From NCBI GenBank assembly GCA_018715325.1, contig DVLV01000098.1:2189-66188 (forward strand): 64,000 nucleotides of DNA, given 5' to 3'. This DNA is from Candidatus Stercorousia faecigallinarum. Lineage in GTDB: Bacteria; Cyanobacteriota; Vampirovibrionia; Gastranaerophilales; Gastranaerophilaceae. The position numbers and the translations under genes were made by a program. The notes beneath the pieces are model-generated. The model did not search any database. It saw only the letters and a list, made by a program, of their open reading frames with translations, and had not been told where the DNA came from. The number at the start of each line of letters is the position of its first letter. The stretch's first letter is position 1. Positions 9,991 through 46,192 of this stretch are shown here, one piece after another.

Positions 9991-11562
9991 TTACTTTTTA
10001 GCATTTTTTTCTTGAGAATAATCTGCTGTTCCTGGGAATTTATCCTGACCTGTAGTCATTTTTGTTATCCAGTATTGCATTTTCGGAATAAGAGTAGACA
10101 GGAACAGGGCTGAAATTGCAAAACCGACACCCCAGTTAAATGTATTTTTAATGAAGTTTTCACGGCAGAAGTTTTTCAATGTGTCTGACGTTATATCTTT
10201 ACCGTGTTTTTCTGCCTTTTCAACAAGTTTTGTTACGTAATGGATTATATCTTCTTTTAACTCTTTCAGTTCTTCATAATTTACATATTTATATTTATTT
10301 GTAGAGGCATTACTTGTCGCAACGCTGAAAACATTTTGCAAGAATTCAGGCATGTTAATTGCGCCTTCTCTAAATACATCTTTAATCTGGTTTTTAGTAA
10401 GAACGGCAACCCCTTCAACTTCCGGCTGAAGTTTTGACATACGTTCTGCAAGATTTGAATATCTCGTAATATCTTTGTTTGAGAATGTCTTATGGTTTTT
10501 CAGATAATCCTTAAATGTATCAAGAGTTACGACTTTATGTTCATTGAATTTTTGAAGCAGAGTTTTATCAATATAGCCCACATTTGCATTGTCGCCGAAT
10601 ACCTGCTTCGAGAATTCTTCTATACTCATTTTACCGTTATTTTTATCTAAAACAGCTTGTAAATGGTCTGTAACTTGTTTTGCCGCAACGGGATCAAGTC
10701 TTGTTTTTCTTCCGTCCTCAAGCTGGTTAAGCCATCTGTTAATGTTCGGCATACTAAACATATAGAAATATATTGAACTTAAATCTCTAAATAATACTTC
10801 TGTTCTTTCATGATTATTTCTGGAGCTTATCGCACGTCCGCCGGCAATTCCGGCATCTGTTGAAAGCAGCTGATATGTCGGGTCGTTTTCAAATTTATTT
10901 GCAACAGATAAAAGCATATTATAATTCATACCGAAAGAAACTTTTTTATTATCTTCTGACTTAATGAATTTATCCATTGACAGTTTTTGTTCAGATGTAT
11001 TAATTGTGGATTTCGCAGGGGGTTCATCAGGGCTGCCGAAATGTTTACTGTGATAAACAGCTGTAATGTGCTGGTTAATTTTAGGAACAACAAAACCTAC
11101 AAGAACATTCGCAAGCAAAATACTTGATGCAATTTTTAAGAATTTGAATTTTGCGATTTGTTCTTTTGTTAACTCCTTGATAAACTTGCCTGTTTTCCCC
11201 TCAAGCTTAGCTTTAGCCTTAATGGCTTTGTCATCATGCAGATAGTTTTGAAGCGGTTTTCGTATACCGTCTTCCTGTGCATCAAAATCGCTTGTATGAA
11301 GATTTAAAACTTTTTTGCCTATATGGTCGTTCATTTTATTGAACATTTTCACACCGGCAAACCAAAATGCTGCTCCTACGCTTTCTTCCGTAAATCTTTC
11401 ACGTGCTTCTTCAAAGCCGCCTCTTTTATAAGCTTGTAATGTTCTTCCGCCGGTTACAAAGCATTCAAGCATAATAAGAGGTGCAAGACTTCTGCTTGCA
11501 ATGCCGCGTACAAAACGTCTCGGATAACTGAAATTTGAAATTGTCTGAGGGGTTACATTCAT
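9991..11562 (-). CDS. hypothetical membrane protein carrying the recurrent N-terminal motif
   Basis: 523-aa ORF. N-terminus is MNVTPQTISNFSYPRRFVRG. Hydrophobic segments include FLKIASSILLANVLVGFVV and GVGFAISALFLSTLI. Confidence 0.6.
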   Translation of the reverse strand: MNVTPQTISNFSYPRRFVRGIASRSLAPLIMLECFVTGGRTLQAYKRGGFEEARERFTEESVGAAFWFAGVKMFNKMNDHIGKKVLNLHTSDFDAQEDGIRKPLQNYLHDDKAIKAKAKLEGKTGKFIKELTKEQIAKFKFLKIASSILLANVLVGFVVPKINQHITAVYHSKHFGSPDEPPAKSTINTSEQKLSMDKFIKSEDNKKVSFGMNYNMLLSVANKFENDPTYQLLSTDAGIAGGRAISSRNNHERTEVLFRDLSSIYFYMFSMPNINRWLNQLEDGRKTRLDPVAAKQVTDHLQAVLDKNNGKMSIEEFSKQVFGDNANVGYIDKTLLQKFNEHKVVTLDTFKDYLKNHKTFSNKDITRYSNLAERMSKLQPEVEGVAVLTKNQIKDVFREGAINMPEFLQNVFSVATSNASTNKYKYVNYEELKELKEDIIHYVTKLVEKAEKHGKDITSDTLKNFCRENFIKNTFNWGVGFAISALFLSTLIPKMQYWITKMTTGQDKFPGTADYSQEKNAKK

Positions 11563-11758: not shown

Positions 11759-12538
11759 ATGCAAGTAACTCCAATTAATAATAATGTAAACCATCAAGGG
11801 ATAAATAATAAGAAAAAAGATAAAAAGATAAAAGCAGGTGTTATTGCTGCTTCTGCTTTCGGTGTGGGTGCTGCGTTGGCACATGTTGCCAAAAGGCAGG
11901 GATTTTCATTATCTCCATCGGCAATTAAAAAAACTCCTGTTAAAGATTGGGCAATTTTTGGTTTGTATAATAAAAATCAACCAGGTAAAAAAGTTTTGGA
12001 ACTTGATGATCCTCTTGACATTATTGAATTGGCTTCAGCTTCTGTTATAGGCGGTGTTGCGGGCGGAGCTGTTTTAGATGATAAAAAACATTTAAAAGCT
12101 AAATTTAAAGAAGCGGTTAATCAGCTTTTAGGTAATGTTTTAGTTCCGATTGCTTGTGTTGGGGCAGCATCAAAGTTATACGGCAAACATAAAGAGAAAA
12201 TTTTAAATTTTGTTCCGCAAATTGCCCAAAAAGGCAAAGCATCTGTTGTGTTTAATAAAGCATTAAAAGCCCTTCCTGCCTCAATCGCGACAGTGGCATC
12301 ATTAGGAATAGGAATATTTGCAGGCAACAGAGTTTCAAATATTTTAAACGAAAAAATATTCCACAAAAAAGTTAAAAGAGAAATTAAAGGCTCTGATTTT
12401 GCTCCGCACGTTGATGATTTAGGAATGGCAATATCTTTAATGTCCGAACAATCTAAATTTTCTTCATTTGTACAAAGAATAGTACCGCTGTTCTTATGTG
12501 TGCCGGGAATTGAAGCAGGAACACACAGAGAAGAATAA
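11759..12538 (+). CDS. hypothetical membrane protein carrying the recurrent N-terminal motif
   Basis: 259-aa ORF starting MQVTPINNNVNHQG, followed by a basic stretch and then TM-like AGVIAASAFGVGAALAHV. SD GAAGG upstream, and an upstream TGTTACAAT extended -10. Confidence 0.6.
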   Translation: MQVTPINNNVNHQGINNKKKDKKIKAGVIAASAFGVGAALAHVAKRQGFSLSPSAIKKTPVKDWAIFGLYNKNQPGKKVLELDDPLDIIELASASVIGGVAGGAVLDDKKHLKAKFKEAVNQLLGNVLVPIACVGAASKLYGKHKEKILNFVPQIAQKGKASVVFNKALKALPASIATVASLGIGIFAGNRVSNILNEKIFHKKVKREIKGSDFAPHVDDLGMAISLMSEQSKFSSFVQRIVPLFLCVPGIEAGTHREE

Positions 12539-12551
12539 TAAAAAAAATCTT

Positions 12552-14558
12552 TTATTCTTCAGGTTCTTTCAATATATCAGCGTATTTTTGCAGGTCGTCA
12601 AGAAGCGGCTTATATTTTTCATTAAGTTCTGCACGAGTTTTATCTCTATCTTTACTTTCCATAACCTGCATATCAATTTTTGCCTGAAGTGCTTTCTTTA
12701 ACAATTCTGGAATGTTCAAGGCTGTTGGATTTTCGCTTGAAAGATTTTTATAATATTTATCCAAATAATCTGCACTTATACGTTCTTTCCAGTTTTCTTC
12801 CCTTTTTGAACCGCCGATATTATAAGTAACGTCAGTAATGCCTAAAAGATCTGCAAATGATATTTGGAACTTAGGAGTTGTCATAAGTTCGGCAAATTTT
12901 GCACGAATACGCTCTCTGTCATTTGTTTTATAAAGTTCTTTAAGTTCGTTTCTTATTTGTCCTATATTTTCCCTGCCGTCATCCATGTTAAGGTACCCTG
13001 CAAGATAATCGAGATTCCAGGCATCATGTTCTCTTGTGTATTCTCCTTTTGATCCGTCTTTCATGTCTCCGATACGCTGCATATATGTCATTGCAGGCAT
13101 GTTGTCATGAGAACCCATTAAATACCAATCGTCTTTTCTGCCATCTCTGTTTAATTTATCCTGTACTCTGCCCCAGTCAATATTTTGTATTTTAGGCAAG
13201 TTGAGTTCTCTTTCATAAATTTGTACAAATCTGTCAGGATAACTGCAAATATCTTCCCATACTGCCTTGTCCGGAGTTATTCCCTTTCTCCGCAATGCCG
13301 GAAGTACTAGTCTTGTAAGCAGTTTCGGATAAGCTTTGTCATATTCGTTACCGTCAGCATCTTTAAGTTCTGAAATATATTTTTCAACATCATGATTTTT
13401 ATCATTCCCGTTTACGAATTCATCTTCAGATGCAGACGTAGAAAGCAGATAGGGTTCAATAAGACCCATTACGTGGTCAATTCTGATATTTTCACAAAAT
13501 TCTAGTGCGAAATCAAGTTTTTCTCTTAAGAATTCACCGCCGATATCTAATTGGTAACTGTTCTTTTTAAATATTTTTTTAGGATCTACTACAGGAATAA
13601 ACCATCTTTGAGATTTGCCGCCGCTTTCTTTTGCTCCCATTTCCCAATCTTTTAAGAATGCATCCTGATAACGCCATTTATCCATTTTTGAACATCCGAC
13701 AAGCAGATCATTTATATATTTAAAGCCTTGTTTATCACGCCAGTCTTTGTTCTCTTTAATTTGTTTGGTTGCAATAAATTGTTCAAATTTATATTGATTA
13801 ATTTCATTTTCATTGGCATCAACCATATCATAATATTTTTCTATAGCGTCCATATCTCCGTTATGGACACCGGCAATAAAAGTTTTGTTTTCTTCGTCCG
13901 GCCATTCCTCAAATCTGTCTGTACCGTATTTCTTTGATAAGACATGAAATAATCCCTCTTCGGTCAGTCTGTCATCATGTTTATCAAGAAATTTTTCAAA
14001 TTCTTTATTTAGTGTTAAGGCTTCGGGTTGTCCTTTTGCAACTTTTGCTTTGAAATTATTATAGCTTTCTTTTAATGCGGTATTATATGTTTTGAATGCT
14101 TCGTTAAAGTCTGTCATGTCATAATTTTTATCATCTGCTTCGGGAAGTTTAGTGACATTATTAAAAGTTTCTTGGGAAAGAATTTTGCCGTATTTATCTT
14201 TTGTTAATTCTTCCAAATCAATAAACAATTTATTTTTAGCAAAAGCTGAAGAATTATATGGTGAAGGTTGTATTTCGCCTTTTATAATTTCAAGTTCTCC
14301 GCCGGGTCCTAGCTGGTTTCCGTTGAAACCGTAGAGCATAAGAAATTTAGTATATTCTTTTGCCGCACTGCCGTAAGGAGATCCTATATAAGAACTTCTG
14401 CCAAGAGCCGGAAAACACGATCCATGTGTTATTACAACACGTTCTTTTGTTCCCAATGCTTCATAAGTTTTGTTAATAGTTTCCTTTAAACCCGGTTCTT
14501 CTTCCTTTGTCGGTCGTCTTCTAAATGTTATTTGATTATTTATCCCTAATACACGCAT
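12552..14558 (-). CDS. malQ: 4-alpha-glucanotransferase (amylomaltase, GH77)
   Basis: GH77-type segments: SPYGSAAKEY...GNQLGPGGE...SPYNSSAFAKN and IRIDHVMGL. Carries an N-terminal extension MRVLGINNQITFRRR. Confidence 0.8.
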   Translation of the reverse strand: MRVLGINNQITFRRRPTKEEEPGLKETINKTYEALGTKERVVITHGSCFPALGRSSYIGSPYGSAAKEYTKFLMLYGFNGNQLGPGGELEIIKGEIQPSPYNSSAFAKNKLFIDLEELTKDKYGKILSQETFNNVTKLPEADDKNYDMTDFNEAFKTYNTALKESYNNFKAKVAKGQPEALTLNKEFEKFLDKHDDRLTEEGLFHVLSKKYGTDRFEEWPDEENKTFIAGVHNGDMDAIEKYYDMVDANENEINQYKFEQFIATKQIKENKDWRDKQGFKYINDLLVGCSKMDKWRYQDAFLKDWEMGAKESGGKSQRWFIPVVDPKKIFKKNSYQLDIGGEFLREKLDFALEFCENIRIDHVMGLIEPYLLSTSASEDEFVNGNDKNHDVEKYISELKDADGNEYDKAYPKLLTRLVLPALRRKGITPDKAVWEDICSYPDRFVQIYERELNLPKIQNIDWGRVQDKLNRDGRKDDWYLMGSHDNMPAMTYMQRIGDMKDGSKGEYTREHDAWNLDYLAGYLNMDDGRENIGQIRNELKELYKTNDRERIRAKFAELMTTPKFQISFADLLGITDVTYNIGGSKREENWKERISADYLDKYYKNLSSENPTALNIPELLKKALQAKIDMQVMESKDRDKTRAELNEKYKPLLDDLQKYADILKEPEE

Positions 14559-14608: not shown

Positions 14609-16087
14609 TTAAATTTCTGATATAATATCAATTTGTGCGTTACATCCGATTTCTTCTCTTGAAAGTACGGTTATATTATTCATATAACTGCTTAAAAGAG
14701 TAAATATTAAATGTCTGAATTCCAGAGGAACAATCAATTTCGGGCATTCAATATTAAGCTGTGCCGTTTTTTTTGAAATTTTTTCGGCTAATTTTTCTGC
14801 AAAACCCGCATCTATTCGTATTATTGCATCATCGCTTTCATCAAAATTCGGCATAAATTTATCAAGTGTGTTTTCTGATATTTCAAAAGCACTTATTACT
14901 CCGTCTGAATTTTGATTGCATTTACAGATTTGGCGGGAGAGCGATAATCTGATTTTCTTGATTAAATCTGATTTTGTGCTTTCCTGAGCAAAATCATTTA
15001 TTTTTTCAAAAATGTTTGTAATATCCTTTATAGAAATTTTTTCTCTGATTAAGCTTGTTAAAATAAATCTTAAATCAGATAAGGATATAAAATCGGGAAT
15101 GATATTTGACACAAGAAAGTCATTAACGTCATTCACAACATCTATATATTTATCTAAATCTTCATAATCCAAAAGGTCATCCACATATTTTACGGCGCAA
15201 AACTCTAATGCTCTGGCAATAAATTCGGAGCCTGATATACCTTTTTGCCAGAAATCTTTTGTTTTATCTTTTTCAAGCCAAATAATTTTACGACCTGTTA
15301 TTTTATCAATATCAGAAATAGAATTTTTAATTTTCTTATCAAGATGTAAATCGTCGTCAAAAAACATTAAAAATTGAGGATATACGCATGCTTTAAAAAC
15401 ATCCAGACCGCGAACTCTTATTGTAAATTCGTAAGGGTTCAGATTTTCGTCATCCTGAAAAACAATTTTCGGTATAACATATCCGAGTTCTTCAGTAAGT
15501 TTTAAACGGGATTTTACTGTTTCCGCAACAAGTTCTTCTTCCTGAATCTCACTGTCAGGATCAATGTAGCCGAGGATTTCTTCGCTTAAATGAATAGAAA
15601 GCTTTTCCTCTTTTAATTTTGCATACATAGTGTCAGGGGAAGTCGCTTTTGCAAGTTTCAGCTTCAATTCATCAAGCTCTTTAAGACCTGCCGAAATTTT
15701 ATCGTTCAGTTTTTTTCTGTTTACTGATGCTGGTGCTTCTCCTTCAAGTTCTGTTTTTATCTTTGCGATTTTTGCTTTTTGTTCTCTTATTTTACTCTGA
15801 ATATCAAGGCAAATTTCATAAGGTGATTGTTCAGGAGAAAGCATTTTTTCCATCTGGCTTTTAAATGTTGAAATATTTATTGTATCTGCATTTATTTCGT
15901 TTCCTGAAGATGCTGCTTCCCGCATAAAAATGCAGTGGCATAAAACTTGCCCGTCGTCATTTTCAACTTCTTGCATGCTGTATAATTCCCAGTCATTCAT
16001 TGACATCTCGTTCAAAAGATTTTGAAGCTCCTGAGTATTTTCACTTGAGCAGGTTTTGATAACATACTGCATCTTTTTGTTGTACAT
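14609..16087 (-). CDS. soluble FlhA/FHIPEP C-terminal-domain protein with DUF4177-like N-terminal domain and coiled coil; no FHIPEP transmembrane domain
   Basis: Collinear blocks match the FlhA cytoplasmic domain: LGYVIPKIVFQDDENLNPYEFTIRVRGLDV, ITGRKIIWLE, IIPDFISLSDLRFILTSLIREKISIKDITNIFEKINDFA, IRLSLSRQICKC and PKLIVPLEFRHLIFTLLSSYMNNITVLSREEI. The N-terminus QYVIKTC...LNEMSMNDWELYSMQ is DUF4177-like. SD AAGGAG upstream. Confidence 0.7.
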   Translation of the reverse strand: MYNKKMQYVIKTCSSENTQELQNLLNEMSMNDWELYSMQEVENDDGQVLCHCIFMREAASSGNEINADTINISTFKSQMEKMLSPEQSPYEICLDIQSKIREQKAKIAKIKTELEGEAPASVNRKKLNDKISAGLKELDELKLKLAKATSPDTMYAKLKEEKLSIHLSEEILGYIDPDSEIQEEELVAETVKSRLKLTEELGYVIPKIVFQDDENLNPYEFTIRVRGLDVFKACVYPQFLMFFDDDLHLDKKIKNSISDIDKITGRKIIWLEKDKTKDFWQKGISGSEFIARALEFCAVKYVDDLLDYEDLDKYIDVVNDVNDFLVSNIIPDFISLSDLRFILTSLIREKISIKDITNIFEKINDFAQESTKSDLIKKIRLSLSRQICKCNQNSDGVISAFEISENTLDKFMPNFDESDDAIIRIDAGFAEKLAEKISKKTAQLNIECPKLIVPLEFRHLIFTLLSSYMNNITVLSREEIGCNAQIDIISEI

Positions 16088-16096
16088 AATTACTCC

Positions 16097-16867
16097 TTAA
16101 TTTTTGTCATTTGCAATTAACAGTTTCAAAGCTTCTATTGCTGTTTTAATTGCTTTATCCGTGTCATGGACTACGGGATTTTCAAGATTTTGTTTTTCTC
16201 TTTCCTGATTTGCGACTGTTAAAAATACAGACCCTGTTTTTACTCTCAGAAAACTGCCCACAATAAAAAGCGCAGCGGATTCCATTTCTGAAGCAAGACA
16301 GCCCATTTTCTTCCATGCTTCCCATTTATTGAGAAGTTCATAATTCACAGGCATTCTTTCGGGATTGTGCTGTCCGTAGAAAGAGTCTTTACATTGAACA
16401 ACACCTGCATGATATTCATAGCCTAAGTTTTTCGCAGCCTGCACGAGTGAATTTGTTACATCAAGATTTGCAACAGCCGGAAATTCTATAGGTGCGTATT
16501 CTTTTGAGGTTCCTTCCATGCGGATTGCTCCTGTTGCAATTACGATATCCCCGCCCTTTACATTTATATCCATGCCTCCGCATGTTCCTACGCGGATAAA
16601 TGTTTTTGCTCCGATATTAACAAGTTCTTCCAGTGCGATTGAAGCGGATGAGCCGCCTATACCGGTTGATGTTACACTGACTTTTGTGCCGTTTAAATAT
16701 CCGGTATAGGTTGTAAATTCGCGTCTGTCCGCTACAAGTTTTGCATCTTCAAAATATGCCGCTATTTTTTCGCATCTTTTAGGATCGCCGGGTAAAATCA
16801 CATATTCTCCGACATCACCGTGATTAAGACCGATATGGTACTGTTCTCCGTGGTTTGAATATTTCAT
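16097..16867 (-). CDS. udp: uridine phosphorylase (PNP/UDP family)
   Basis: [10 protein letters not shown]...[16 protein letters not shown]...RVGTCGG and the EMES motif are typical of the PNP_UDP_1 family. Confidence 0.8.
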
Positions 16868-19471: not shown

Positions 19472-20281
19472 TTATGTTAAACATCTTTTGTAAATATCAT
19501 TTTTGTTGAGCTTATAAAGTTCGGATAAAATTATAGAAATTTCTTTCGCCTTAAAGTTTTTTGATTTTAATAAAGAAATTTTTTCATCAATATCAATATC
19601 TGAGCAGGTTTCTTCTTCTCTGAAAACAAGTGCGACGATTTCACCTTTCAGGGTATTATTTCGAAAATGTTCAATAACTTTTTCGGTTTCATCAATAACG
19701 ATTTCTTCAAAAACTTTTGTCAGTTCTCTTCCTATACCAACGCGTGAATTCGGGCGAAATTCTTTTATTAATTGAAGAGTATTTAAAATTCTGTTAGGGG
19801 ATTCGTAAAATACTAAATCAGTTGATTTATATTTTTTTAATAAGTTTTCTATTTGTGATTTTGTTTTTGGTAAAAATCCTGCGAAGGTAAAATCTTCTCC
19901 CTTTCTTGGAACCTGAGAAAGAAATGTTGCAACGGCATTTGCTCCTGCGAGTGAAGTTACGGTGTAATTATTTTTTCTTAATTCGTCTACTATTATCGCT
20001 CCGGGATCACAGAATAAAGGAGTTCCTGCATCGGATACAAGTGCAATTTTTTTCCCTTCTTTTAATATATTAAGAAAACAATTTATACGTTCTTTTTCGT
20101 TAAATTTGTGATATGAGATACATTTTGTTTTTATATCAAAATGATTTAGAAGTTTTTGTGTTACTCTCATATCTTCGCAAGCAATTATATCAACAGATTT
20201 TAAGGTATCTATTGCCCTTCGGGTTATATCTCCAAGGTTTCCGATAGGGGTCGGAACTATATAAAAATCATATTCTTTCAT
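19472..20281 (-). CDS. rsmI: 16S rRNA (cytidine1402-2'-O)-methyltransferase RsmI
   Basis: YIVPTPIGNLGDITRRAIDTLKSVDIIACEDMRVTQKLL is the tetrapyrrole-methylase-fold RsmI signature. Confidence 0.85.
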   Translation of the reverse strand: MKEYDFYIVPTPIGNLGDITRRAIDTLKSVDIIACEDMRVTQKLLNHFDIKTKCISYHKFNEKERINCFLNILKEGKKIALVSDAGTPLFCDPGAIIVDELRKNNYTVTSLAGANAVATFLSQVPRKGEDFTFAGFLPKTKSQIENLLKKYKSTDLVFYESPNRILNTLQLIKEFRPNSRVGIGRELTKVFEEIVIDETEKVIEHFRNNTLKGEIVALVFREEETCSDIDIDEKISLLKSKNFKAKEISIILSELYKLNKNDIYKRCLT

Positions 20282-21417
20282 TAATTAAATCTCGCTTCCG
20301 TATCTTTTTTAAGTTTGTCTGTGATCTCTCTGTAATCTATGGTTACAGGTGTAGGTTTTGAAGTCTTTATTATATCTAAAAATATTTTCGCATTCTCCGG
20401 TTTTTTACCGTCCAAAAAATAAGCGGAATTTGCGGCATCTTCCCGGGCAGGAACAATTAAACCGCTTTGTGCAAATTTTTCACTGCTTTCTTTTGATGAT
20501 AAAAATTCTATAAGCTTTTTAGCTTCATTTTTGTGTACGGATTGTTTTGAAACTGCCCAGCCTGATGCGTCTAACTGTACAATACTGCCTTTAGTTCCTT
20601 TCGGAAACTGTGCAATATCCCAGTCAAATTCAGCTTCCTCGCGTAATTTCGGAACCATCCATCGTCCCGACAGGTACATCCCGATACGCTGCTGCAGAAA
20701 CATTTGTGCCATTGTAGCACTTGCACTTTCAGATTTTAAAGGTGCAGCATGATATTTTTTTCGCAGATCAGCATAAAAAGTTATTGCATTTTGGCTTTCA
20801 GGTTTTGATATTTCGTCAGGCAATATTCCGCCGCCGCTGCTCATCAGATAAGGAAGATAAAATAACGGATCTTCCTCAAAACTTATACCGAAAATATTTT
20901 TATCGGTTAGTTTTTGTGCCGTTGTAAGAAAATCTTCAAATGTCCAATTTTTGTCAGGGTATGCAATATGTTTTTTATTAAATAAATCTTTATTGTAATA
21001 GATTACTAAATTAGAAACGTCACGCGGAATTGCGTAAAGCTTGCCTTTCCAGCTTAATGCTTCAAGTGGCTGAGGATAAAAATGCCCGTCAGCATTTAAT
21101 TCTTCCAAAAGTCCTGCATTTGCATAAACAGGTAAATATAAATTATTGATAAATATTATGTCAGGAGCTGTGTTTGATGCAAAAAGGAGGTGGATTTTCT
21201 GAAAATAATTCTGGGGAATATGCATAAAATCCACTTTGATATTCGGATTTTCTTGTTCAAACTCTGATAAAAGAGGTTTTAATATATCTGTTTCCGATTT
21301 AGAGCCCCAGCTTGCAAATTCAATTATTGTTTTGGTTTCCTTTTTGCCGCATCCGCATAAAAATATAATGCAAACAAGTATTGTGCAAAATATTTTTTTA
21401 TTAAACGCTGCTCTCAC
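20281..21417 (-). CDS. ABC transporter substrate-binding lipoprotein (sugar-type, family 1 SBP)
   Basis: Lipobox-like FLCGCG after a hydrophobic leader. The SBP_bac_1-like body includes FASWGS...DIIFINN...YAIPRD. The stop overlaps the rsmI start (TAATG). Confidence 0.75.
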   Translation of the reverse strand: MRAAFNKKIFCTILVCIIFLCGCGKKETKTIIEFASWGSKSETDILKPLLSEFEQENPNIKVDFMHIPQNYFQKIHLLFASNTAPDIIFINNLYLPVYANAGLLEELNADGHFYPQPLEALSWKGKLYAIPRDVSNLVIYYNKDLFNKKHIAYPDKNWTFEDFLTTAQKLTDKNIFGISFEEDPLFYLPYLMSSGGGILPDEISKPESQNAITFYADLRKKYHAAPLKSESASATMAQMFLQQRIGMYLSGRWMVPKLREEAEFDWDIAQFPKGTKGSIVQLDASGWAVSKQSVHKNEAKKLIEFLSSKESSEKFAQSGLIVPAREDAANSAYFLDGKKPENAKIFLDIIKTSKPTPVTIDYREITDKLKKDTEARFN

Positions 21418-21430
21418 AATTATTTACCTG

Positions 21431-23398: not shown

Positions 23399-23500
23399 TT
23401 TCTACCGTTAAATTTTTCCCTTATACATATATATAATACTTTGAGCAAAAAAAAATTGCCAGTTTGTTAAAAAAATATACTTTTATGTTACAATTTTTTT

Positions 23501-24391: not shown

Positions 24392-24392
24392 T

Positions 24393-25061: not shown

Positions 25062-25066
25062 AAAAT

Positions 25067-25099
25067 ACTTCCCTTTTATTTTCTATACAAAAGGGAAGT
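25067..25099 (-). terminator. hairpin (11-bp stem ACTTCCCTTTT/AAAAGGGAAGT) between the pilin gene and the GNAT-like gene; the 3' arm contains the SD of the downstream gene
   Basis: Perfect 11-bp inverted repeat at 25067-25077 and 25089-25099. On the minus strand it is followed by ATTTT and the ATG at 25061. Confidence 0.5.
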
Positions 25100-25142
25100 T
25101 ATATGAATGTTTAAAATTGCCTTAATTTTAAGTTTTTTTAAG

Positions 25143-25903: not shown

Positions 25904-25967
25904 TTTTCAACCTCCTGTTTTTCTTTATTATTTAACATGAAGTTGTTTTTGTCAAGTGCTGTTTAAC

Positions 25968-26663: not shown

Positions 26664-26782
26664 ATCTGAATTCTATATATAAAATACAAAAAATACAACT
26701 CTGTTTGTTAAAAAATATTAATAAAAATAGCCCGTTCGAATGATACATTATGACTTATTTTTAGGCATATTTATTTGAAAAG

Positions 26783-28644: not shown

Positions 28645-28646
28645 TA

Positions 28647-30307: not shown

Positions 30308-31654
30308 ATGGACGGTTTAGATACTAGCAGGCTTGATGAATTAAAGCAAAGGGTTAAAAATAAGCTTGATGAAACGGAATTATTTCGTTTCAAAGGCACT
30401 GTGTCTAAGCTTTTGGGATTGACGGTCGAGGTAAAGCTTCCGGGATTGAAAATCGGTGATTTATGCTATATTGAAACTTACGACGGACGTAAAAAGCCTG
30501 CTGAAGTTGTTGCTTTTAAAGGTGAAGCAGCCCAGTTACTTTTGCTTTATGACGGAGAAGGTATCGGGCAGGGAAGTCTTGTAACTTCTACGGGTAAACC
30601 TATTATTATTCCCGTCGGGGATTTTCTTCTCGGACGTCTTATAAATCCAATGGGCGAGCCGATTGACGGAAAGCCTTTGGATACTTCCGGTGCTACATGG
30701 CGTCCTGTTGAGGGACCTCCTCCCGGACCTTTTGAAAGACCGATTATTACCGAAGTTTTTTCAACGGGTGTAAGAGCTATTGACAGTTGTATGACAATGG
30801 GCTGCGGTCAGCGTTTGGGTTTATTTGCAGGGTCAGGCGTAGGAAAAAGTACATTGCTCGGTATGATTGCAAGAAATTCAGATGCTGATGTTAACGTTGT
30901 AGCTTTGATTGGAGAACGCGGTCGTGAGGTAAAAGAGTTTGTTGAAGATGCATTAGGAGAACAGGGTATGGCAAAATCCGTTCTTGTATGCTCTACAGGC
31001 GATCAGCCCCCTTTGATCAGACAAAAAGCCTTGCTTACGGCAACGGCTGTGTGTGAATATTTCAGAGATCAGGGGAAAAAAGTTTTCTTAATGACCGATA
31101 CTGTTACCAGATGCGCAATGGCAGGGCGTGAAGTTGGTTTATCAATAGGTGAACCGCCTACTATGAAAGGCTATCCGCCTTCTATTTTTTCATGGCTTCA
31201 AAAAGTTCTAGAACGTGCGGGAAACAGTCCTAAAGGTTCCGTTACGGCGCTATATACCGTTTTAATGGAAGGCGATGATATTTCAGACCCCATTGTTGAT
31301 ATTGTAAGAGGTATTGTTGACGGTCACATTTTCTTATCGAGAAAAGTTGCCGAAATGAATCATTACCCTGCAATTGATGTTCTTGGAAGTATTTCAAGGC
31401 TTATGTCATCTATTGTTACGCAGGAGCACAAGGAAGCTGCAGGCAAAATGCGTGCAATTATGGCTTTGTATCGTGAAAATAAGGATTTGATTGATGTAGG
31501 GATGTATCAGCCGGGGACTAACCCGAGACTTGATATTGCTATTGAAATGATGCCCAAAATTAATGCTTTTTTACAGCAGAGAACATCTGATATAGTCAGC
31601 ATGGACACTACTATAGGAACTCTTGTTGATATGATGCGCGGTGTTGATATTTAA
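30308..31654 (+). CDS. fliI: FliI/YscN-family (flagellar/type III export) ATPase, isolated from other export genes
   Basis: Walker A GLFAGSGVGKSTLLGMI, Walker B VFLMTDTVTR, an F1-beta-like fold and the typical length of 448 aa. The neighbours are rpsP and zupT. There is no SD; TATAAT ends 6 nt before the ATG. Confidence 0.8.
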   Translation: MDGLDTSRLDELKQRVKNKLDETELFRFKGTVSKLLGLTVEVKLPGLKIGDLCYIETYDGRKKPAEVVAFKGEAAQLLLLYDGEGIGQGSLVTSTGKPIIIPVGDFLLGRLINPMGEPIDGKPLDTSGATWRPVEGPPPGPFERPIITEVFSTGVRAIDSCMTMGCGQRLGLFAGSGVGKSTLLGMIARNSDADVNVVALIGERGREVKEFVEDALGEQGMAKSVLVCSTGDQPPLIRQKALLTATAVCEYFRDQGKKVFLMTDTVTRCAMAGREVGLSIGEPPTMKGYPPSIFSWLQKVLERAGNSPKGSVTALYTVLMEGDDISDPIVDIVRGIVDGHIFLSRKVAEMNHYPAIDVLGSISRLMSSIVTQEHKEAAGKMRAIMALYRENKDLIDVGMYQPGTNPRLDIAIEMMPKINAFLQQRTSDIVSMDTTIGTLVDMMRGVDI

Positions 31655-35236: not shown

Positions 35237-35497
35237 ATGGCACTATCTCCAAAGGAAGTTAAAGTATTGACTTTGGTTGCAATGGGCTATTCTGATAAAG
35301 AAATCGGAGTCGAATTAAAAATAGCTTACGGAACCGTCAGGAACCATATTGATAAAGTTGTCTTAAAGTTAAACGCACAGAATAGGACACATGCAGCCAT
35401 AATTTATAAACTTATGAATAAAGATTGGTTAGAGGATATTTATGAAACGAATAATAATACATTGGACCGCAGGAGGATATTATCCGACAGATTATGA
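35237..35497 (+). CDS. LuxR/GerE-family HTH regulator
   Basis: LSPKEVKVLTLVAMGYSDKEIGVELKIAYGTVRNHIDKVVLKL is the GerE-type HTH. SD AGGAAA upstream. Confidence 0.8.
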   Translation: MALSPKEVKVLTLVAMGYSDKEIGVELKIAYGTVRNHIDKVVLKLNAQNRTHAAIIYKLMNKDWLEDIYETNNNTLDRRRILSDRL

Positions 35498-35933
35498 GAA
35501 AGAACATTATCACTTTTTAATTGATAAGGACGGTGCTATTCATTGCGGGAAGTTTAAACCTGAAGATAATGAAGTTTGCAAACCATATAAATATGCAGCG
35601 CATACCGGAGGCGGTAATACAGGAAGTATAGGTATTTCTTTATGTGCTATGGCGGGATTTATAAATAAATTGACAACCGGTAAATATCCGATTTTAAAGA
35701 AACAGTTTGAAAGTGCTATGGAGTTTTGTGCAAAACTGGTAAAAAAATACGATTTGGATATTACTCCGCAAACCGTAATGACACATTATGAATTCGGATT
35801 AAAAAATCCCAAAACATCATCAGCAGGTAAAATTGATATTATTTATCTGCCGCCTTATCCGTGGGTGTCAAAAGATGAAGTCGGCAGTTTTATACGCTCT
35901 AAAATTAAGTGGTACAAATCAAAAGGAGTTTAG
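35442..35933 (+). CDS. N-acetylmuramoyl-L-alanine amidase (Amidase_2/PGRP, T7-lysozyme-like endolysin)
   Basis: IIIHWTAG...EHYHFLID...AAHTGGGNTGSIGISLC...MTHYEF is the amidase_2 pattern. SD GAGGA upstream. Overlaps the 3' end of the LuxR ORF by 56 nt in another frame. Confidence 0.8.
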   Translation: MKRIIIHWTAGGYYPTDYEKEHYHFLIDKDGAIHCGKFKPEDNEVCKPYKYAAHTGGGNTGSIGISLCAMAGFINKLTTGKYPILKKQFESAMEFCAKLVKKYDLDITPQTVMTHYEFGLKNPKTSSAGKIDIIYLPPYPWVSKDEVGSFIRSKIKWYKSKGV

Positions 35934-35938
35934 AATTT

Positions 35939-37447
35939 ATGGAAGTTGCTTATTATAATTTAGCAGGAGGCATAAACCAGGCATTAACAAAAACAGAGCT
36001 TGGAATTGATACAAAAAAAGTTTGCTGGTCAGATGCAGAAAACGTTGAAATACTTCAAAACAGAGGAATTGTCAAACAAAAAGGCAATTCTTTATTTTTG
36101 GAAATAGGTGAAGAAATTACCGGGTTGGCTGAAATATCAGCTTATGACGTTAGTAAAATGTTAATAACTACCGTGTCCGGTAAGATATATATTTATGACG
36201 AAAATCATTCTAAAAAAACTTTGGTTGATAAAACTTTAAAGGGTGTAAAACCTGTATTTCTCAATTTTTTGAACGGCATCCTGGTTATGACTGAAGCCGA
36301 CGGTTTATTTTATATAAAAAACAATGCCGATTATGAAGTTGTGGAATGTAATCTTAAAGATTTGTCAAAAAATACCGTTACAGGGGCATCCATGGCAATT
36401 TATAAAGGCAGAGTTTGGGTTGCAAAAGATGCTGCCATCTATTATTCTGCTCTGGGAACTTATAATGATTTTACAACGGAAAATGATGCAGGGTATATTA
36501 ATGAGTTTCATACCGATACAGGTTCTATAACTGCTTTAAAACCATATAAGGATTATCTTGCCGTTTATAAAAAAGACAGTGTATATCTGCTTACGGGAAC
36601 AAGTCCTGATGATTTTGCAATTGTATTGTTCGCAAGTAAAGGGGCAGTCGGTGCAAATTCTATTGTTAACGTAGAAAATAAACAATATTTTTTAAGTAAC
36701 GGAATTTTTACCCTTGAACAAGCAGGAGAATTAAATCAAATTCAACTCGGAAGTGAAATTTCACAGAAAATAAAGCAGGAATTTTCATCTTTCGGCAAAC
36801 TTGAAAATACATTATGTCTTCATTATGAGACAAGAAGTCAGATGTGGTATTTCTTCCCTTACGCGGATGATACCTTCTTACATACGGTGTGGATTAATGA
36901 CTATGTTAACAAAGCCTGGTATAAACGTGTAATTCCGCAGGATATTGTGACTGCATGCATTTATAACGGGTCTGTATATACCGCAGATAAAGACGGAAAT
37001 ATTTATAAAGAAGATTTCGGCACTACATTTAACGGTAAGGCTGTAAAATTTATGTGGAAATCGCCTTTTCTTGCTCTCTCAAATCCGCATCACAGAAAAA
37101 TGATTGATGAATTTTATTTTCTTCTGGATACAGAACATGATAACGATTTTAACTTCTATGTTTGTAAGGACTACGACAGTGAATATTCGGATGATATAGA
37201 AAAGATTTATTCCATACACCGGGATCATTTAATCTGGGCAGACGATGAGACTTCAGATGATCTGCCGTGCCACTGGACACCTGAAGATGCAAGTGTTCCT
37301 GTTTGGTCGGTAAATAAAGACACAATGGAAAAAGCTGAAATTTCAGAAGCAAATTATTCCGTTCAACTTTGTGTTTCGGGAGAGGATATCACACAGTCCT
37401 GTGCAATTATAGGACTTCAGTTCAGAGAAGTCTATAACGACGATTAG
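35939..37447 (+). CDS. phage structural protein (possibly tail/adaptor; not identified)
   Basis: 503 aa starting at the ATG at 35939, after AAGGAG. It sits immediately upstream of the capsid gene and is predicted to be beta-rich. The assignment rests on context only. Confidence 0.45.
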   Translation: MEVAYYNLAGGINQALTKTELGIDTKKVCWSDAENVEILQNRGIVKQKGNSLFLEIGEEITGLAEISAYDVSKMLITTVSGKIYIYDENHSKKTLVDKTLKGVKPVFLNFLNGILVMTEADGLFYIKNNADYEVVECNLKDLSKNTVTGASMAIYKGRVWVAKDAAIYYSALGTYNDFTTENDAGYINEFHTDTGSITALKPYKDYLAVYKKDSVYLLTGTSPDDFAIVLFASKGAVGANSIVNVENKQYFLSNGIFTLEQAGELNQIQLGSEISQKIKQEFSSFGKLENTLCLHYETRSQMWYFFPYADDTFLHTVWINDYVNKAWYKRVIPQDIVTACIYNGSVYTADKDGNIYKEDFGTTFNGKAVKFMWKSPFLALSNPHHRKMIDEFYFLLDTEHDNDFNFYVCKDYDSEYSDDIEKIYSIHRDHLIWADDETSDDLPCHWTPEDASVPVWSVNKDTMEKAEISEANYSVQLCVSGEDITQSCAIIGLQFREVYNDD

Positions 37448-40232: not shown

Positions 40233-40667
40233 ATGAAACATTTAACCAAACAACAAAAAAAATTTGTTACGGAATATATAAAATCCCTTAACGGCGAGCT
40301 TTCTGCCCAAAAGGCAGGTTATAAATCCAAGGACTTAAAAGAAACAGCATCGATACTTTTATCACAGGATGTGATTATTAAAGAGATTAAATTTCAACTT
40401 AATAATCAGATTAACTCTTTAAGAGTTAATAAAGGGTATGTAATCCAAAAACTTTTGCAGATTGCAGAGTTTTCTCTAGAAGAAGAAGACATTCTGGATA
40501 AAGAAGGTTGTATTACGGGTAAGAAGAAACTTCGTGATACATCTGCCGGTTTGAAAGCTCTTGAAAGTTTATGCAAGTATTTGGGATTTAACTCTGATCA
40601 GGACGAGGAAGAATATAAGTCTGCAAAGATAATAACTATTTCTAATCTTGATGACAGTAAAATTTAA
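40233..40667 (+). CDS. phage terminase small subunit
   Basis: LTKQQKKFVTEYIKSLNGELSAQKAGYKSKD matches the conserved N-terminal HTH of the Terminase_2-type small subunit. Confidence 0.7.
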   Translation: MKHLTKQQKKFVTEYIKSLNGELSAQKAGYKSKDLKETASILLSQDVIIKEIKFQLNNQINSLRVNKGYVIQKLLQIAEFSLEEEDILDKEGCITGKKKLRDTSAGLKALESLCKYLGFNSDQDEEEYKSAKIITISNLDDSKI

Positions 40668-40683: not shown

Positions 40684-41034
40684 ATGAAAAATAACGACGC
40701 AGAAGAAAGGCTTTTAAACAATGCCTCTCTTGATGACCTTATTAAGATGAAAATTGAAAAAGAATTTATTGAAGATTTGAAAAAATCAAAAGAAAAAATT
40801 CCCCCGAAAGTATATACAAATATAAAAGATATACCTTCGGATAAAGTTTTTTCAAAAGTTTCGGTATTCAGATATTTCAACCGTAAGACAAAATGCGAAA
40901 CCTTTGTAAACGGAATTCAGGCAGATGCTCTGATAGGAATTCAAAATAACATCAGAGAGAAAATGTTAAAAGGAGAACTTAATGCTTTTACGACAGAAAC
41001 TGCTTATGTGAAGTTTGAGAAAGCGGTATTTTAA
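40684..41034 (+). CDS. phage hypothetical protein
   Basis: The ATG at 40684 follows AAGGAG. The track start at 40648 lacks an SD. Confidence 0.4.
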   Translation: MKNNDAEERLLNNASLDDLIKMKIEKEFIEDLKKSKEKIPPKVYTNIKDIPSDKVFSKVSVFRYFNRKTKCETFVNGIQADALIGIQNNIREKMLKGELNAFTTETAYVKFEKAVF

Positions 41035-41546
41035 TGGCTGAATTCCGAAATCCTTTTGATAATCCTGCTTTTTTTGAGCAGGCTTTATTTTTATATACAA
41101 AATATTTGAAATATCTTGAAGATGATTATGCTTTTAATGGTTCGAATGTGTATGATTATTTCTTTAGTCTTATACAAAGAACTTATCCCTTCTGTTTTGT
41201 AATAACAGAAGGGAATATAGTTAGCGGCTTTGTCTACTTAGATAATATTATCGGTGATAGTAAAACTTTGCATAGTGCAGAGTTAACAACTTGTTTTGAT
41301 AAACGTTTTTGGGGTAGCTATACAAAGGAATGTGCGAAATTTTTTATAAATTACTGTTTTCAACATTACGGTTTTCAAAAGATTAAAGCTCTTGTTTACC
41401 CTGATAATTCCAGAGTTAAAACTCTTTTAAAAAATGCCGGTTTTGTAAAAGAAGCCTTGCTTAAAAGCGAAACATTGAGAAAAGGACAGTTACAGGATAT
41501 TGAGTTGTACTCGGTCTTTAAAAATAAGACAACAAAAAATAATTAA
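41034..41546 (+). CDS. GNAT-family N-acetyltransferase (RimJ/RimL-like) inside the phage packaging module
   Basis: ...FDKRFWGSYTKECAKFFINYCFQHYGFQKIKALVYPDNSRVKTLLKNAGFVKEALL is a typical GNAT core and C-terminal block. Confidence 0.75.
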   Translation: MAEFRNPFDNPAFFEQALFLYTKYLKYLEDDYAFNGSNVYDYFFSLIQRTYPFCFVITEGNIVSGFVYLDNIIGDSKTLHSAELTTCFDKRFWGSYTKECAKFFINYCFQHYGFQKIKALVYPDNSRVKTLLKNAGFVKEALLKSETLRKGQLQDIELYSVFKNKTTKNN

Positions 41547-41561: not shown

Positions 41562-43220
41562 ATGAAGATAGAAACAGAAGATTTAACACAGAAACTTTCT
41601 GATACTGAAGAAAGATTTTTGGTTTCAAGTATCACGGAAAAGTATGACAAATTTAATGACCAAAGAAGTGCACAGCTTACTGATATAAAACTAGTAAGAG
41701 ATGCAATATATAATTCGGATGTTCCGAAAATTAACGGCTGGGATAACAGGGTGGAACTCCCTGACATATATGAACTTGCTCAAACACTCAAATCTCATAT
41801 AAGTGAAAATTTATATTCACATCCTGATGCGATGTTTGATGTTTCTGGAACTACTCCGCAAACTCAGGGTTATGCCAATAAACAAAAAGCAATGCTTGTA
41901 AATACTTTTGAACAGATGAATATTGAAGATGAAATAGAAAAAGTAATTGACAGCATTGTCGAAACCGGAGAAAGCACTCTTTTTGTCGGCTGGGAAACAA
42001 AGATTAAGACAGTAAGACGGGCAAAAACTATTGAAGAACAAATTCTTAAACCTGATAAAAAAGGGTTTACAATAGATGAAAAAGTAATTTATGATAACGC
42101 AAAAGTTAAACACATAAAATCAGAAGATTTTGTATTTGATAAATTTAATAAAGATAACTGGGATAAGTGTGCAAAAATTTACAGAACATATTCAACAATA
42201 GATGAATTATATTCTGATAAATCAAATAATTGTTTGGATGATAGAAAATTGGAAATATTGAAAGGGGTGGTGGCATCAAGAAAATCTCAAAATAATGATG
42301 AAAATGCTGTTGAAGGGAAAAAGGTAGAAATTTTAGAATTCTGGGGAGATATTGAACTATCTGACGGTACACTTCTTAAAAATTGGTTAATCGTAGTTGC
42401 CGCAAGACGAGAAGTTATCCGTTTTGAAAGCAACCCTTTTGTAATAAATCCTTTTATTCATGCAAATATTATTGAATCTCCAAGGACAGGAAGAGGTATT
42501 TCTCCATTAAGAGTAGCTCTAATTTTAAACAGTCTTGCATCAACAATTTTAAATAAACAGATAGATGCTTTAACTTTGATGATGAATCCTCCATATCTTG
42601 CACCTAAAGGCTGTTTTAAAGGCCAGCAGGACGTAAAACCGGGAAAAATTATTGAATATGATGCGGCATTAATGCCGACGGCTCCGACACCTTTAGCTTT
42701 TGATAAAGCTATGGTGGGCTGGGATTTCTTAAACTATTTTAAATCAACAATAGAAAGTGCAACAGGAATTTTCAAGAATATGGCCGGCAATCTTCAATCT
42801 GCAGAACGAACTGCAACAGAACTGAATTATTCCGTAAGCGGTCAGGAAGCACGATTAAACATGATATTGGATTCCATAAATCGAAAAATTATTGTTCCAA
42901 TGGTTGAAAAAACAGCTGAGATAATCTCTAATTTTAAACTCGGTAAAGAATTAATCGGAGTAAATGACAGAGGCAAAACAAGCTTTATGGAAATTGATGA
43001 TAATGTAAGAAATGGTAATTACATATATCGTTATGGCGACAGAAGAGCTTCTTTTGAAAGAAAAATGAGATTGAAGGAATTATTTGAAGTTGTTCAGTCT
43101 TTTGCTCAGGTTCCTGAAGTAGAGCAAAAAATAGATTGGCTGGAATGCTTTAAATTTGCACTTGAACAGTACGGAATAGAAAACGCAAATAACTTTTTAA
43201 TCAGTGAAGATAAATCATAG
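41562..43220 (+). CDS. phage portal protein (probable)
   Basis: 552 aa, a typical portal size, positioned in the packaging module between TerS and TerL. No motif-level proof. Confidence 0.5.
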   Translation: MKIETEDLTQKLSDTEERFLVSSITEKYDKFNDQRSAQLTDIKLVRDAIYNSDVPKINGWDNRVELPDIYELAQTLKSHISENLYSHPDAMFDVSGTTPQTQGYANKQKAMLVNTFEQMNIEDEIEKVIDSIVETGESTLFVGWETKIKTVRRAKTIEEQILKPDKKGFTIDEKVIYDNAKVKHIKSEDFVFDKFNKDNWDKCAKIYRTYSTIDELYSDKSNNCLDDRKLEILKGVVASRKSQNNDENAVEGKKVEILEFWGDIELSDGTLLKNWLIVVAARREVIRFESNPFVINPFIHANIIESPRTGRGISPLRVALILNSLASTILNKQIDALTLMMNPPYLAPKGCFKGQQDVKPGKIIEYDAALMPTAPTPLAFDKAMVGWDFLNYFKSTIESATGIFKNMAGNLQSAERTATELNYSVSGQEARLNMILDSINRKIIVPMVEKTAEIISNFKLGKELIGVNDRGKTSFMEIDDNVRNGNYIYRYGDRRASFERKMRLKELFEVVQSFAQVPEVEQKIDWLECFKFALEQYGIENANNFLISEDKS

Positions 43221-44902: not shown

Positions 44903-46192
44903 ATGTTGTATAAATTATTAAAGGCTCAGCGGAAATTTTTAGAAATCCCGCACGATTATACATTAGATGTTGCGGTATATCAGGGAGGTTACGGCTCAGG
45001 GAAAACGTTTGCAGGTTCTCTTCTGGGAATTTTACTTGCATTAAAATTCCCGGGTGTGCGCGGATTGGTCGGTGCACAAACTTATACTCTTGTTAGAGAT
45101 ACTACTTTACAAACTTATTTTGAACATTTAGAAAATTTTGGTTTTGTGGACGGCAAGGATTATGAATGGTCATCAACTCTGCAAAAACTGACTTTTAAAA
45201 ACGGTTCGGAAATACTTTTCAGACATTTTGACGAGCCTAATAAGCTTAAGTCTTTAAATCTCGGGTTTGTAGAAATTGAAGAAATGTCGGATATTCCTTA
45301 TGATACTTTTAAAATGCTTTTAGGGCGTATGCGTCAGAGAGTTAAAAAAGTTTGGAAGAATTTTACCTACCGAATTTTTGGTCATACAAACCCTGAAATG
45401 CAAAGAGGCTGGATTTACAAAACGTTTGTTGAAAATCCTGCTCCGAATTATAGGCTTATCACTGCACCAACAACCCAAAATATTTATTTGCCCGAGGGTT
45501 TTTGTGATGAACTAAAAAAACTTTATGATGAACAATATTATAATATATTTGTTCTTGCTCAAAACGGGGAATATAATAACGGGCTTGTTATAAAGGATTT
45601 TACCGATGCAAATATCAAAGATATTTCTTACCAGCCTGATATGGATTTGCATATTTCCTGCGATTTTAACGTTGACCCTATGTGCTGGGTTTTTGCGCAT
45701 AAAACAGATGATAAAGTTTTTTACTTTGATGAAATTGCAATGGAAAATACTACAACTGCAAAAGCCTGCGATGAATTTTACAGACGTTACCCGAACCATA
45801 AAGGGAAAGTAATCGTAAACGGTGATGCATCAGGCGATAACAGAAGCTGTACAAGCGAATATACAAATTATGTAATAATCAAGAAAAAACTTTTACAATA
45901 CGGCTATGATGTTGAAATTCAGATTAAAGCATTTAACCCGCCTATTAAAAACAGGATAATGGCTTTTAATTCAAAAGTTCGTTCCGCAAATGGCGAAGTT
46001 TGTCTGTTTGTTGATAAAAGATGTGAAAAACTTCTATATAATATTTACAATCTCAAATATAAAGAAGGTTCGTCAAAGATTGATATTCCGACTTATCAGC
46101 AGATAAAGCAGTCAAAAGAACTTAAATTTTTATCTCATCCAATGGATGCTGCTTCGTATCTTGTTGACTTTTACTGGCCTATAACACTTTAA
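44903..46192 (+). CDS. phage terminase large subunit
   Basis: Walker A YQGGYGSGKTFAG, a downstream acidic Walker B-like block GFVEIEEMS, a C-terminal nuclease-like half, and a length of 429 aa. Confidence 0.8.
   Translation: MLYKLLKAQRKFLEIPHDYTLDVAVYQGGYGSGKTFAGSLLGILLALKFPGVRGLVGAQTYTLVRDTTLQTYFEHLENFGFVDGKDYEWSSTLQKLTFKNGSEILFRHFDEPNKLKSLNLGFVEIEEMSDIPYDTFKMLLGRMRQRVKKVWKNFTYRIFGHTNPEMQRGWIYKTFVENPAPNYRLITAPTTQNIYLPEGFCDELKKLYDEQYYNIFVLAQNGEYNNGLVIKDFTDANIKDISYQPDMDLHISCDFNVDPMCWVFAHKTDDKVFYFDEIAMENTTTAKACDEFYRRYPNHKGKVIVNGDASGDNRSCTSEYTNYVIIKKKLLQYGYDVEIQIKAFNPPIKNRIMAFNSKVRSANGEVCLFVDKRCEKLLYNIYNLKYKEGSSKIDIPTYQQIKQSKELKFLSHPMDAASYLVDFYWPITL

Follow-up and report, generated by a model that had tools for sequence, protein, structure and literature searches.

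A soluble FlhA paralogue without the export-gate membrane domain, conserved across the Vampirovibrionia

The gene described here lies on the minus strand of a 64 000 nt stretch of contig DVLV01000098.1 from Candidatus Stercorousia faecigallinarum, a gut bacterium of the Candidatus Gastranaerophilales (the whole stretch is referred to below as the window) and encodes a protein related to the cytoplasmic domain of the type III export-gate protein FlhA (FlhA-C). The gene, hereafter the paralogue, and its parts are as follows.

14609..16087, minus strand: coding sequence of the soluble FlhA paralogue, taken from the list of open reading frames (ORFs); intact, 492 amino acids plus stop
16093..16098, minus strand: Shine–Dalgarno sequence AAGGAG, read from the sequence, 5 nt before the ATG at 16087
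15917..16072, minus strand: beta-alpha-beta-beta module, DUF4177-like, residues 6–57, from the AlphaFold model
15824..15916, minus strand: length-variable spacer, residues 58–88, modelled at low confidence (predicted local distance difference test, pLDDT, below 50 at residues 60–84)
15641..15823, minus strand: predicted helical hairpin, Lys/Glu-rich, residues 89–149, from the AlphaFold secondary structure
15602..15640, minus strand: equivalent of the FlhA linker (FlhA_L), residues 150–162, with the motif P151-x-x-M154-Y155
14612..15601, minus strand: FlhA-C body, residues 163–492, with the four-subdomain fold, from Foldseek against the PDB

The Shine–Dalgarno sequence overlaps the stop codon of udp (16097–16099), which ends 9 nt upstream of the paralogue gene, and its position supports both the annotated start and translational coupling of the paralogue to udp.

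The homology of this protein to the FHIPEP family is far above chance and is confined to the cytoplasmic part. Pfam PF00771 (FHIPEP) matched residues 144–483 with E=1.4e-45, corresponding to positions 314–655 of a profile of 657, and profile positions 1–313, which represent the membrane domain, had no match in the paralogue. The FlhA model TIGR01398 matched residues 139–491 (profile 323–677 of 678) with 149 bits, below its equivalog cutoff of 772 bits, and the SctV model TIGR01399 gave a weaker match of 84 bits, again below the equivalog cutoff (692 bits). Among PDB sequences the best match was FlhA-C of Bacillus subtilis (3mix, E=2.4e-19), followed by FlhA-C of Helicobacter pylori and Salmonella. 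A Foldseek comparison of the AlphaFold model with the PDB gave 6ch2_C (E=1.1e-22, target TM-score 0.84, 343 aligned columns), and further matches included FlhA of H. pylori and B. subtilis, MxiA, YscV, CdsV, SsaV and EscV, as well as PDB entries of the D456V, F459A and T490M mutants. The earlier note on this DNA, made from the letters alone, had called the product a soluble FlhA-C protein and had suggested a profile search for FHIPEP, a structural comparison with FlhA-C and a survey of homologues lacking transmembrane segments as checks; all three came out in its favour, the Pfam, TIGR01398, 3mix and 6ch2_C matches each falling in the cytoplasmic part and the survey finding the family spread across the Vampirovibrionia. 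The four FlhA-like peptide blocks that it pointed to are present (residues 201–230, 329–367, 379–390 and 449–480), as are both of its N-terminal strings (residues 7–13 and 30–39). Its alignment with FlhA over residues 190–492 was right as to homology and wrong as to where it begins, which is near residue 140, so that the FlhA linker is included.

No transmembrane segment was found in the paralogue, in which the best 19-residue Kyte–Doolittle window scores 1.43 and none exceeds 1.6; for comparison, E. coli FlhA has 89 such windows above 1.6. Transmembrane segments are also absent from most of 15 divergent family members. In the AlphaFold model, which was built from 16 divergent members and has an overall pLDDT of 81.2, the membrane half is replaced, as had been proposed, by a small N-terminal module followed by helices. 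The module consists of a strand (residues 6–14), a helix (18–30) and two further strands (34–42 and 48–57) with pLDDT of about 88–95, and it gave the same beta-alpha-beta-beta arrangement when modelled alone (pLDDT 87.6). L25, N26, W33, E40 and F54 are invariant among the 16 divergent members, whose identity falls as low as 28%, and this conservation indicates that the module is real. Its family assignment is a different matter. A scan of the full-length protein against Pfam returned no DUF4177 match at E<=1; the isolated module matched DUF4177 (PF13783) at E=0.022 and 15.4 bits, below the gathering cutoff of 25 bits. DUF4177 was the top Pfam match in 15 of the 16 divergent members at E<=10 (best E=1.9e-4), again always under the gathering threshold. 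The two share a length of about 60 residues and the pattern '..Y.v......L...LN.....GWEL.........', and a relationship to DUF4177 is weakly consistent with these data; thus the module recognized in the earlier note stands, whereas the family name reached only sub-threshold matches. The resemblance brings no mechanism with it, DUF4177 being a domain of unknown function. Neither a profile search of the module against PDB sequences, which gave no match, nor a Foldseek search against the PDB, in which the best matches were insignificant (E>=0.014; dodecin, NikR-C and ACT-like folds), identified a relative.

The spacer that follows is rich in indels in the family alignment. The next segment had been described as a coiled coil, a description that we have dropped: two helices are predicted (residues 89–115 and 122–149, pLDDT about 80–90), and because the heptad periodicity of neither differs significantly from that of shuffled sequences, 'helical hairpin' is the preferable term. 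K99, I100 and N128 of the hairpin are invariant in the family alignment. A short helix at residues 151–158 of the model corresponds to FlhA_L.

The functional residues of FlhA were mapped onto the paralogue with MAFFT, in agreement with the HMMER alignment to 3mix, and were compared in two sets, 13 canonical FlhA proteins of the lineage and 30 soluble family members. The columns are given in Salmonella/E. coli numbering, with the residue of the window protein in brackets.

Linker P-x-x-M-Y (columns of E351, W354 and N355): canonical, P, M and Y in 13/13; soluble family, P in 21/30, a hydrophobic residue in 30/30 (M, F or L in 27) and Y or F in 20/30
R391 (R194): invariant in the canonical and the soluble sets
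D456 (D261): canonical, D in 13/13; soluble, D in 24/30; the window copy keeps D
G368 of the GYXLI motif (S168): canonical, G in 13/13; soluble, S in 29/30 and T in 1/30
F459 (T264): canonical, Y in 13/13; soluble, T in 11, S in 8 and Y in 6
T490 (R292): canonical, T in 13/13; soluble, variable (R, Q, N, E or K)

The position of G368 is also occupied by glycine in all other canonical sequences aligned, and in the soluble family the Ser or Thr found there is followed by an invariant Glu at the column of R370. D456, F459 and T490 form the docking pocket of Salmonella FlhA for the FlgN, FliS and FliT chaperone–cargo complexes, and on this basis canonical late-chaperone docking is probably altered in the paralogue. 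The paralogue linker, P151-x-x-M154-Y155, aligns to E351, W354 and N355 of the E. coli and Salmonella proteins. FlhA_L binds to a groove of the adjacent protomer and stabilizes the nonamer (PMC8213127), and because the linker motif is kept, oligomerization would appear to be retained as well.

When one genome of each GTDB species was scanned, relatives were returned at 495 loci. The best 80 of these are covered over their full length at 64–94% identity, and nearly all bear the label Candidatus Gastranaerophilales or Melainabacteria; among them is the complete genome of MEL.A1 (CP017245.1), whose orthologue (L016) is 82% identical to the paralogue. The Melainabacteria are relatives of the cyanobacteria that do not photosynthesize. 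In a search of 1.84 billion representatives the complete architecture (476–507 amino acids, aligned end to end) was recovered down to 28–30% identity, below which the matches were to other FlhA-C-bearing proteins over residues ~130–490 only. The most divergent members carry the labels Vampirovibrionia bacterium and, from groundwater, Melainabacteria bacterium RIFOXYA12_FULL_32. The family is monophyletic in all of 100 neighbour-joining bootstraps and sits on a long branch; by identity its nearest canonical relatives are the lineage's own FlhA proteins (28.9%, versus 23.5% for other canonical FlhA). Of the 80 orthologous loci, 79 have an uninterrupted ORF; in the remaining one (L035, JBKUMA010000076.1) a stop follows 392 amino acids, perhaps because the assembly is wrong there, perhaps because the gene is truly a pseudogene in this metagenome-assembled genome. 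The paralogue is under strong purifying selection: pairwise ratios of non-synonymous to synonymous substitution rates (dN/dS) were 0.03–0.12 across all regions, the novel N-terminal parts included, with values of 0.06–0.11 for the whole protein, 0.05–0.08 for the hairpin and 0.03–0.06, the lowest, for the linker. The flanks of the 80 loci hold no remnant of an FlhA membrane domain or of FlhB. These data indicate that the paralogue, a variant of a known protein, is functional and was not simply left behind by flagellar loss.

The genes around the paralogue are not those of a flagellar operon. The udp gene directly upstream, for uridine phosphorylase, was identified with TIGR01718 (326 bits, above the cutoff). 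Downstream lies a divergent 668-residue glycoside hydrolase family 77 (GH77) 4-alpha-glucanotransferase ('malQ'; 12552–14558, minus strand), which scores 113 bits with Pfam Glyco_hydro_77 and well below the cutoffs of the NCBIfam 4-alpha-glucanotransferase models (TIGR00217: 70 versus 206). In the gut species, represented by the 80 loci, the paralogue occupies the next-to-last place of a conserved block rsmI-bamA-skp-udp-paralogue-malQ, from which udp is absent in 9/80. Two ORFs, at 9991–11562 (minus strand, 523 amino acids) and 11759–12538 (plus strand, 259 amino acids), are conserved downstream of malQ in 51/80 loci and gave no Pfam, NCBIfam or meaningful PADLOC match; PADLOC likewise returned no match for the paralogue or its conserved unknown neighbours. 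No minus-strand terminator-like site was found within the block, a scan for promoters and terminators gave the same counts as shuffled sequences, and an Rfam scan of the window had no matches. The operon neighbours are probably incidental, since members outside the gut clade do not share this gene order.

The neighbours malQ and udp had been correctly named beforehand; the statement that no type III secretion genes lie nearby needs amending, for one such gene is found about 14 kb from the paralogue.

30308..31654, plus strand: orphan FliI/YscN-family type III secretion ATPase, 448 amino acids, with Pfam ATP-synt_ab and T3SS_ATPase_C

This protein scores 546 bits with TIGR01026 (fliI_yscN) against a cutoff of 379.5 bits, its P-loop AGSGVGKST is intact, and its gene lies between rpsP (29747–30115, minus strand) and a ZIP transporter gene (31699–32499, plus strand), an order that recurs on other contigs. 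It is a candidate functional partner of the paralogue. No other flagellar genes were found in the 64 kb window, nor were any injectisome genes. On contig MFRQ01000090.1 of a groundwater Melainabacterium, a member of the soluble family and a flagellin gene are 2.6 kb apart.

A prophage-like block at ~34600–48230, on the plus strand, follows fliI in the window and also on the related contigs L086–L090. Its recognizable genes are as follows.

35442..35933, plus strand: amidase
35909..37447, plus strand: 512-residue virion-protein or amidase-like ORF
40233..40667, plus strand: small terminase
41034..41546, plus strand: GNAT
41562..43220, plus strand: portal-like
44903..46192, plus strand: large terminase

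Elsewhere in the window, four ORFs on the minus strand (71–826, 1964–2764, 25143–25862 and 33575–34264) have a prokaryotic N-terminal methylation motif and are type IV pilin- or pseudopilin-like. Two further minus-strand ORFs, at 55292–59482 (1396 amino acids) and 21431–23398 (655 amino acids), match no Pfam family, the longer having only a faint glucosidase-like similarity in NCBIfam (E=2e-6). The cumulative GC skew has its minimum near 20–22 kb, and genes lie mostly on the minus strand to the left and mostly on the plus strand to the right of ~26 kb, which fits a region close to a replication origin at ~20000–30000; no dnaA was seen in the window.

Canonical FlhA is also present in the lineage. 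Contigs of the Gastranaerophilales type encode an FlhA with eight transmembrane segments that is 36% identical to E. coli FlhA over residues 23–696. Its gene always follows fliH directly, and at the four loci whose flanks were read further out (L082–L085; for example L082, 6164–13136) the order is fliE-fliF-x-fliH-flhA, the products being FliE (123 amino acids), FliF (556), an unannotated protein (340) in the usual position of FliG, FliH (236), FlhA (703) and a TPR protein (332), with fliI outside the cluster. Genes of the DUF6613 family flank this cluster at the four loci, and the pilin-like ORF 25143–25862 of the window also matches DUF6613. Many Gastranaerophilales have incomplete sets of flagellar genes (PMC4040986); complete sets are reported in only ~25% of the order, the rest retaining flhB, fliI and flgG (bioRxiv 10.64898/2026.04.24.720558). 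MEL.A1 is without the genes for filament, cap, junction and L/P rings and has kept the export core, including flhA, fliPQR, fliF and fliH. Di Rienzi et al. (2013) listed two flhA genes per genome without comment, and because MEL.A1 has an orthologue 82% identical to the paralogue, the second group is very probably the soluble family; the supplements of PMC3787301 and of the 2026 preprint contain no flhA or KEGG orthology entries. As the paralogue is intact and constrained, coexists with flagellar genes and is present in the reduced MEL.A1, it predates flagellar reduction and outlives it.

Our current working hypothesis, to which we give about an even chance of being right, is that the paralogue, an ancient soluble offshoot of FlhA present across the Vampirovibrionia/Melainabacteria, acts with the flagellar-type export machinery as an accessory, membrane-detached oligomer of the FlhA-C type. 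It cannot act as an export gate, because it is without the proton-driven membrane domain. However, as the ring-locking linker motif and the invariant R391 are retained, FlhA-C-type oligomers would most likely still be formed, whether as a ring free in the cytoplasm or by stacking on the canonical FlhA ring or joining it as mixed subunits. Such an oligomer might serve as an accessory platform on which soluble components of flagellar-type type III export in this lineage dock or are regulated, with the FliH/FliI/FliJ ATPase complex or export cargo as candidate clients. Client specificity and conformational switching should differ from those of canonical FlhA, since two of the three late-chaperone pocket residues and the GYXLI glycine are replaced. 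Persistence in species with reduced flagellar sets would plausibly follow from the export core being kept there. We speculate that the N-terminal module and hairpin, in replacing the membrane domain, act as an assembly or tethering element. More tentatively, a second FlhA-C ring, detached from the membrane and bearing a crown of hairpins and beta-alpha-beta-beta domains, could form a cytoplasmic hub for FliI and/or cargo; we think this particular arrangement possible and somewhat doubtful. If it were true, the hub would have been kept after loss of the filament and outer-ring genes, implying a non-motility function in secretion or sorting, and the paralogue would stand as a naturally occurring FlhA-C ring that is soluble and assembles by itself, and as a new class of component for type III export.

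A number of observations weigh against this hypothesis. The canonical chaperone pocket is not preserved at the F459 and T490 positions, and the otherwise invariant G368 is replaced by Ser in 29/30 soluble members. The neighbour-joining tree resolves no sister relationship between the family and the lineage's canonical FlhA. The gene was never found in a flagellar operon, either at the 80 gut loci or in distant relatives, and in the latter it stands among unrelated genes with the gut synteny not kept. Finally, by assembly and contig names, no assembly is shared between the carriers of canonical FlhA and the 80 loci L001–L080.

An alternative is that the FlhA-C fold and its oligomerization serve as a scaffold for a process other than export. 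The operon suggests envelope biogenesis or the metabolism of carbohydrates or nucleosides as examples, and new interactions would be supplied by the N-terminal module and the hairpin. We regard this as possible and on the unlikely side. It would account for the stable synteny with bamA-skp-udp and the GH77 gene at the 80 gut loci with no intervening minus-strand terminator, for the absence of the gene from flagellar clusters, and for the changes in the chaperone pocket and at the GYXLI glycine; moreover, the gene occurs at 495 loci as against complete flagellar sets reported in only about a quarter of the order (bioRxiv 10.64898/2026.04.24.720558), and FlhA-C occurs in several other non-canonical architectures and non-flagellar contexts (see below). 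However, the synteny is lost outside the gut clade, the strongest constraint falls on the linker motif specific to type III secretion and on R391, and an export core is available even in the reduced genomes, which are reported to keep fliI and flhB and, in MEL.A1, also flhA, fliPQR, fliF and fliH.

A further explanation is that the paralogue is a decoy or poison subunit, entering or capping the canonical FlhA-C ring through the contact of linker and groove, or titrating FliJ, FliI or chaperone–cargo complexes, and thus a negative regulator by a logic comparable to that of FlaG competing for FlhA in Campylobacter. The near identity of the linker motif to that of the lineage's canonical FlhA (P-x-x-M-Y) and the coexistence with canonical FlhA and flagellin fit such a role, and soluble antagonists acting at FlhA-C have a precedent (PMC11536152). 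We nevertheless consider it improbable: with an identity of only ~29% to canonical FlhA-C, exact co-assembly becomes less likely, the chaperone pocket is divergent, and one would expect a mere inhibitor to disappear along with flagella, yet the gene is kept in MEL.A1 with its reduced flagellar set.

The suggestion that flagellar loss left the gene behind in a state of decay, or that it is what remains of the 3' end of an interrupted flhA, is in keeping with the missing membrane half and the incomplete flagellar sets of many Gastranaerophilales (PMC4040986) and is extremely improbable, given a monophyletic, class-wide family that shows no relaxed selection, an architecture conserved down to 28% identity, 79/80 intact ORFs, a strong Shine–Dalgarno sequence with udp directly abutting, 80 flanks free of an FlhA-N remnant and a family member beside flagellin in a groundwater relative; we regard this candidate as ruled out. 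The earlier note had listed flagellar loss as one of three options and had itself argued against a 3' fragment, correctly as it turns out. Of its two remaining options, the one in which the protein regulates, or acts as a decoy for, an export apparatus whose genes lie elsewhere is favoured over a repurposed platform, because the lineage has canonical FlhA, FliH, FliF and FliE and the window an orphan FliI.

FlhA-C and its injectisome counterpart SctV-C form the substrate-sorting rings of flagella and injectisomes, and to our knowledge work on the assembly of these rings has until now dealt with the membrane-anchored gate. Full-text literature searches returned no description of FlhA-C paralogues lacking transmembrane segments, and the paralogue is a genuine and functional variant, not described before, of a protein of known kind. 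It offers a tractable protein with which to study FlhA-C oligomerization and linker switching without the membrane domain, and a lead on the role of 'partial flagellar gene sets' in gut Melainabacteria. Its label in databases is 'FlhA' or else 'FHIPEP family type III secretion protein'; given these names, and the two flhA genes per genome of an earlier study, inventories of flagellar genes in the lineage can overcount flhA.

Because several further non-canonical architectures containing FlhA-C were found, reuse of this domain is broader than the soluble family alone. One, here called the 'FDYK' family (P0165, P0172, P0188, P0193, P0306, P0312 and P0314; L109–L112), represents a third FlhA-C architecture, in which an unrelated N-terminus of ~190–500 amino acids starting '..FDYK.FA....Q' is followed by two or three transmembrane helices and FlhA-C; its FlhA-C is ~52% identical to that of the lineage's canonical FlhA, some members contain a Peptidase_M10 domain, and the G+C content is ~32%. 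Locus L109 has three FHIPEP-domain genes (412, 444 and 780 amino acids) among TPR, TPM, LemA, VWA and M48 genes. Three proteins of 479–496 amino acids (P0176, P0197 and P0202) represent a second FlhA-C type apparently lacking transmembrane segments (maximum hydropathy 1.16–1.36), with an FDYK-like helical N-terminus joined directly to FlhA-C, and short FlhA-C forms anchored by one or two transmembrane helices were also found. The PHROG family phrog_12657, of unknown function, matches the FlhA-C of the paralogue with E=2.2e-20 (profile 218–576 of 579), and a 'Bacteriophage sp.' sequence from human faeces (MT835480.1, 24296–25321) gives a weak FlhA-C match (21% identity, E=7e-7); these may reflect FlhA-C on mobile elements, or mis-binned contigs. 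The other non-canonical proteins are like the soluble family in that the domain is detached from the canonical eight-helix membrane domain, some of them being likewise without transmembrane segments; they differ in their unrelated N-termini, in their contexts and in their identity to canonical FlhA-C (~52% versus ~29%).

Compared with FlhA itself, the paralogue has the linker and the complete four-subdomain cytoplasmic domain, with the fold of the FlhA-C structures from Salmonella, B. subtilis and H. pylori, and it conserves the P-x-x-M-Y linker, R391, D456 and the 'VSIKDI..IFE..ND' motif of D3. However, it is without the proton-conducting domain of eight transmembrane segments and without the FHIPEP loop, its N-terminus is unrelated, and its gene lies outside any flagellar operon. 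With SctV, InvA, MxiA, YscV and CdsV it shares the same cytoplasmic fold (Foldseek E of 1e-17 to 1e-20, target TM-scores of 0.73–0.86), yet it has no membrane domain and its sequence match is weaker than that to FlhA. The chlamydial FlhA paralogue retains its membrane domain, whereas the protein described here lacks it and has a new N-terminal module. The resemblance to Chlamydia lies in the scattering of export components outside a complete flagellar set, as with the orphan FliI, FlhA and FliF of that genus, which has no flagellum (PMC2830194), and as is seen here in the FliI gene orphaned between rpsP and the ZIP transporter gene.

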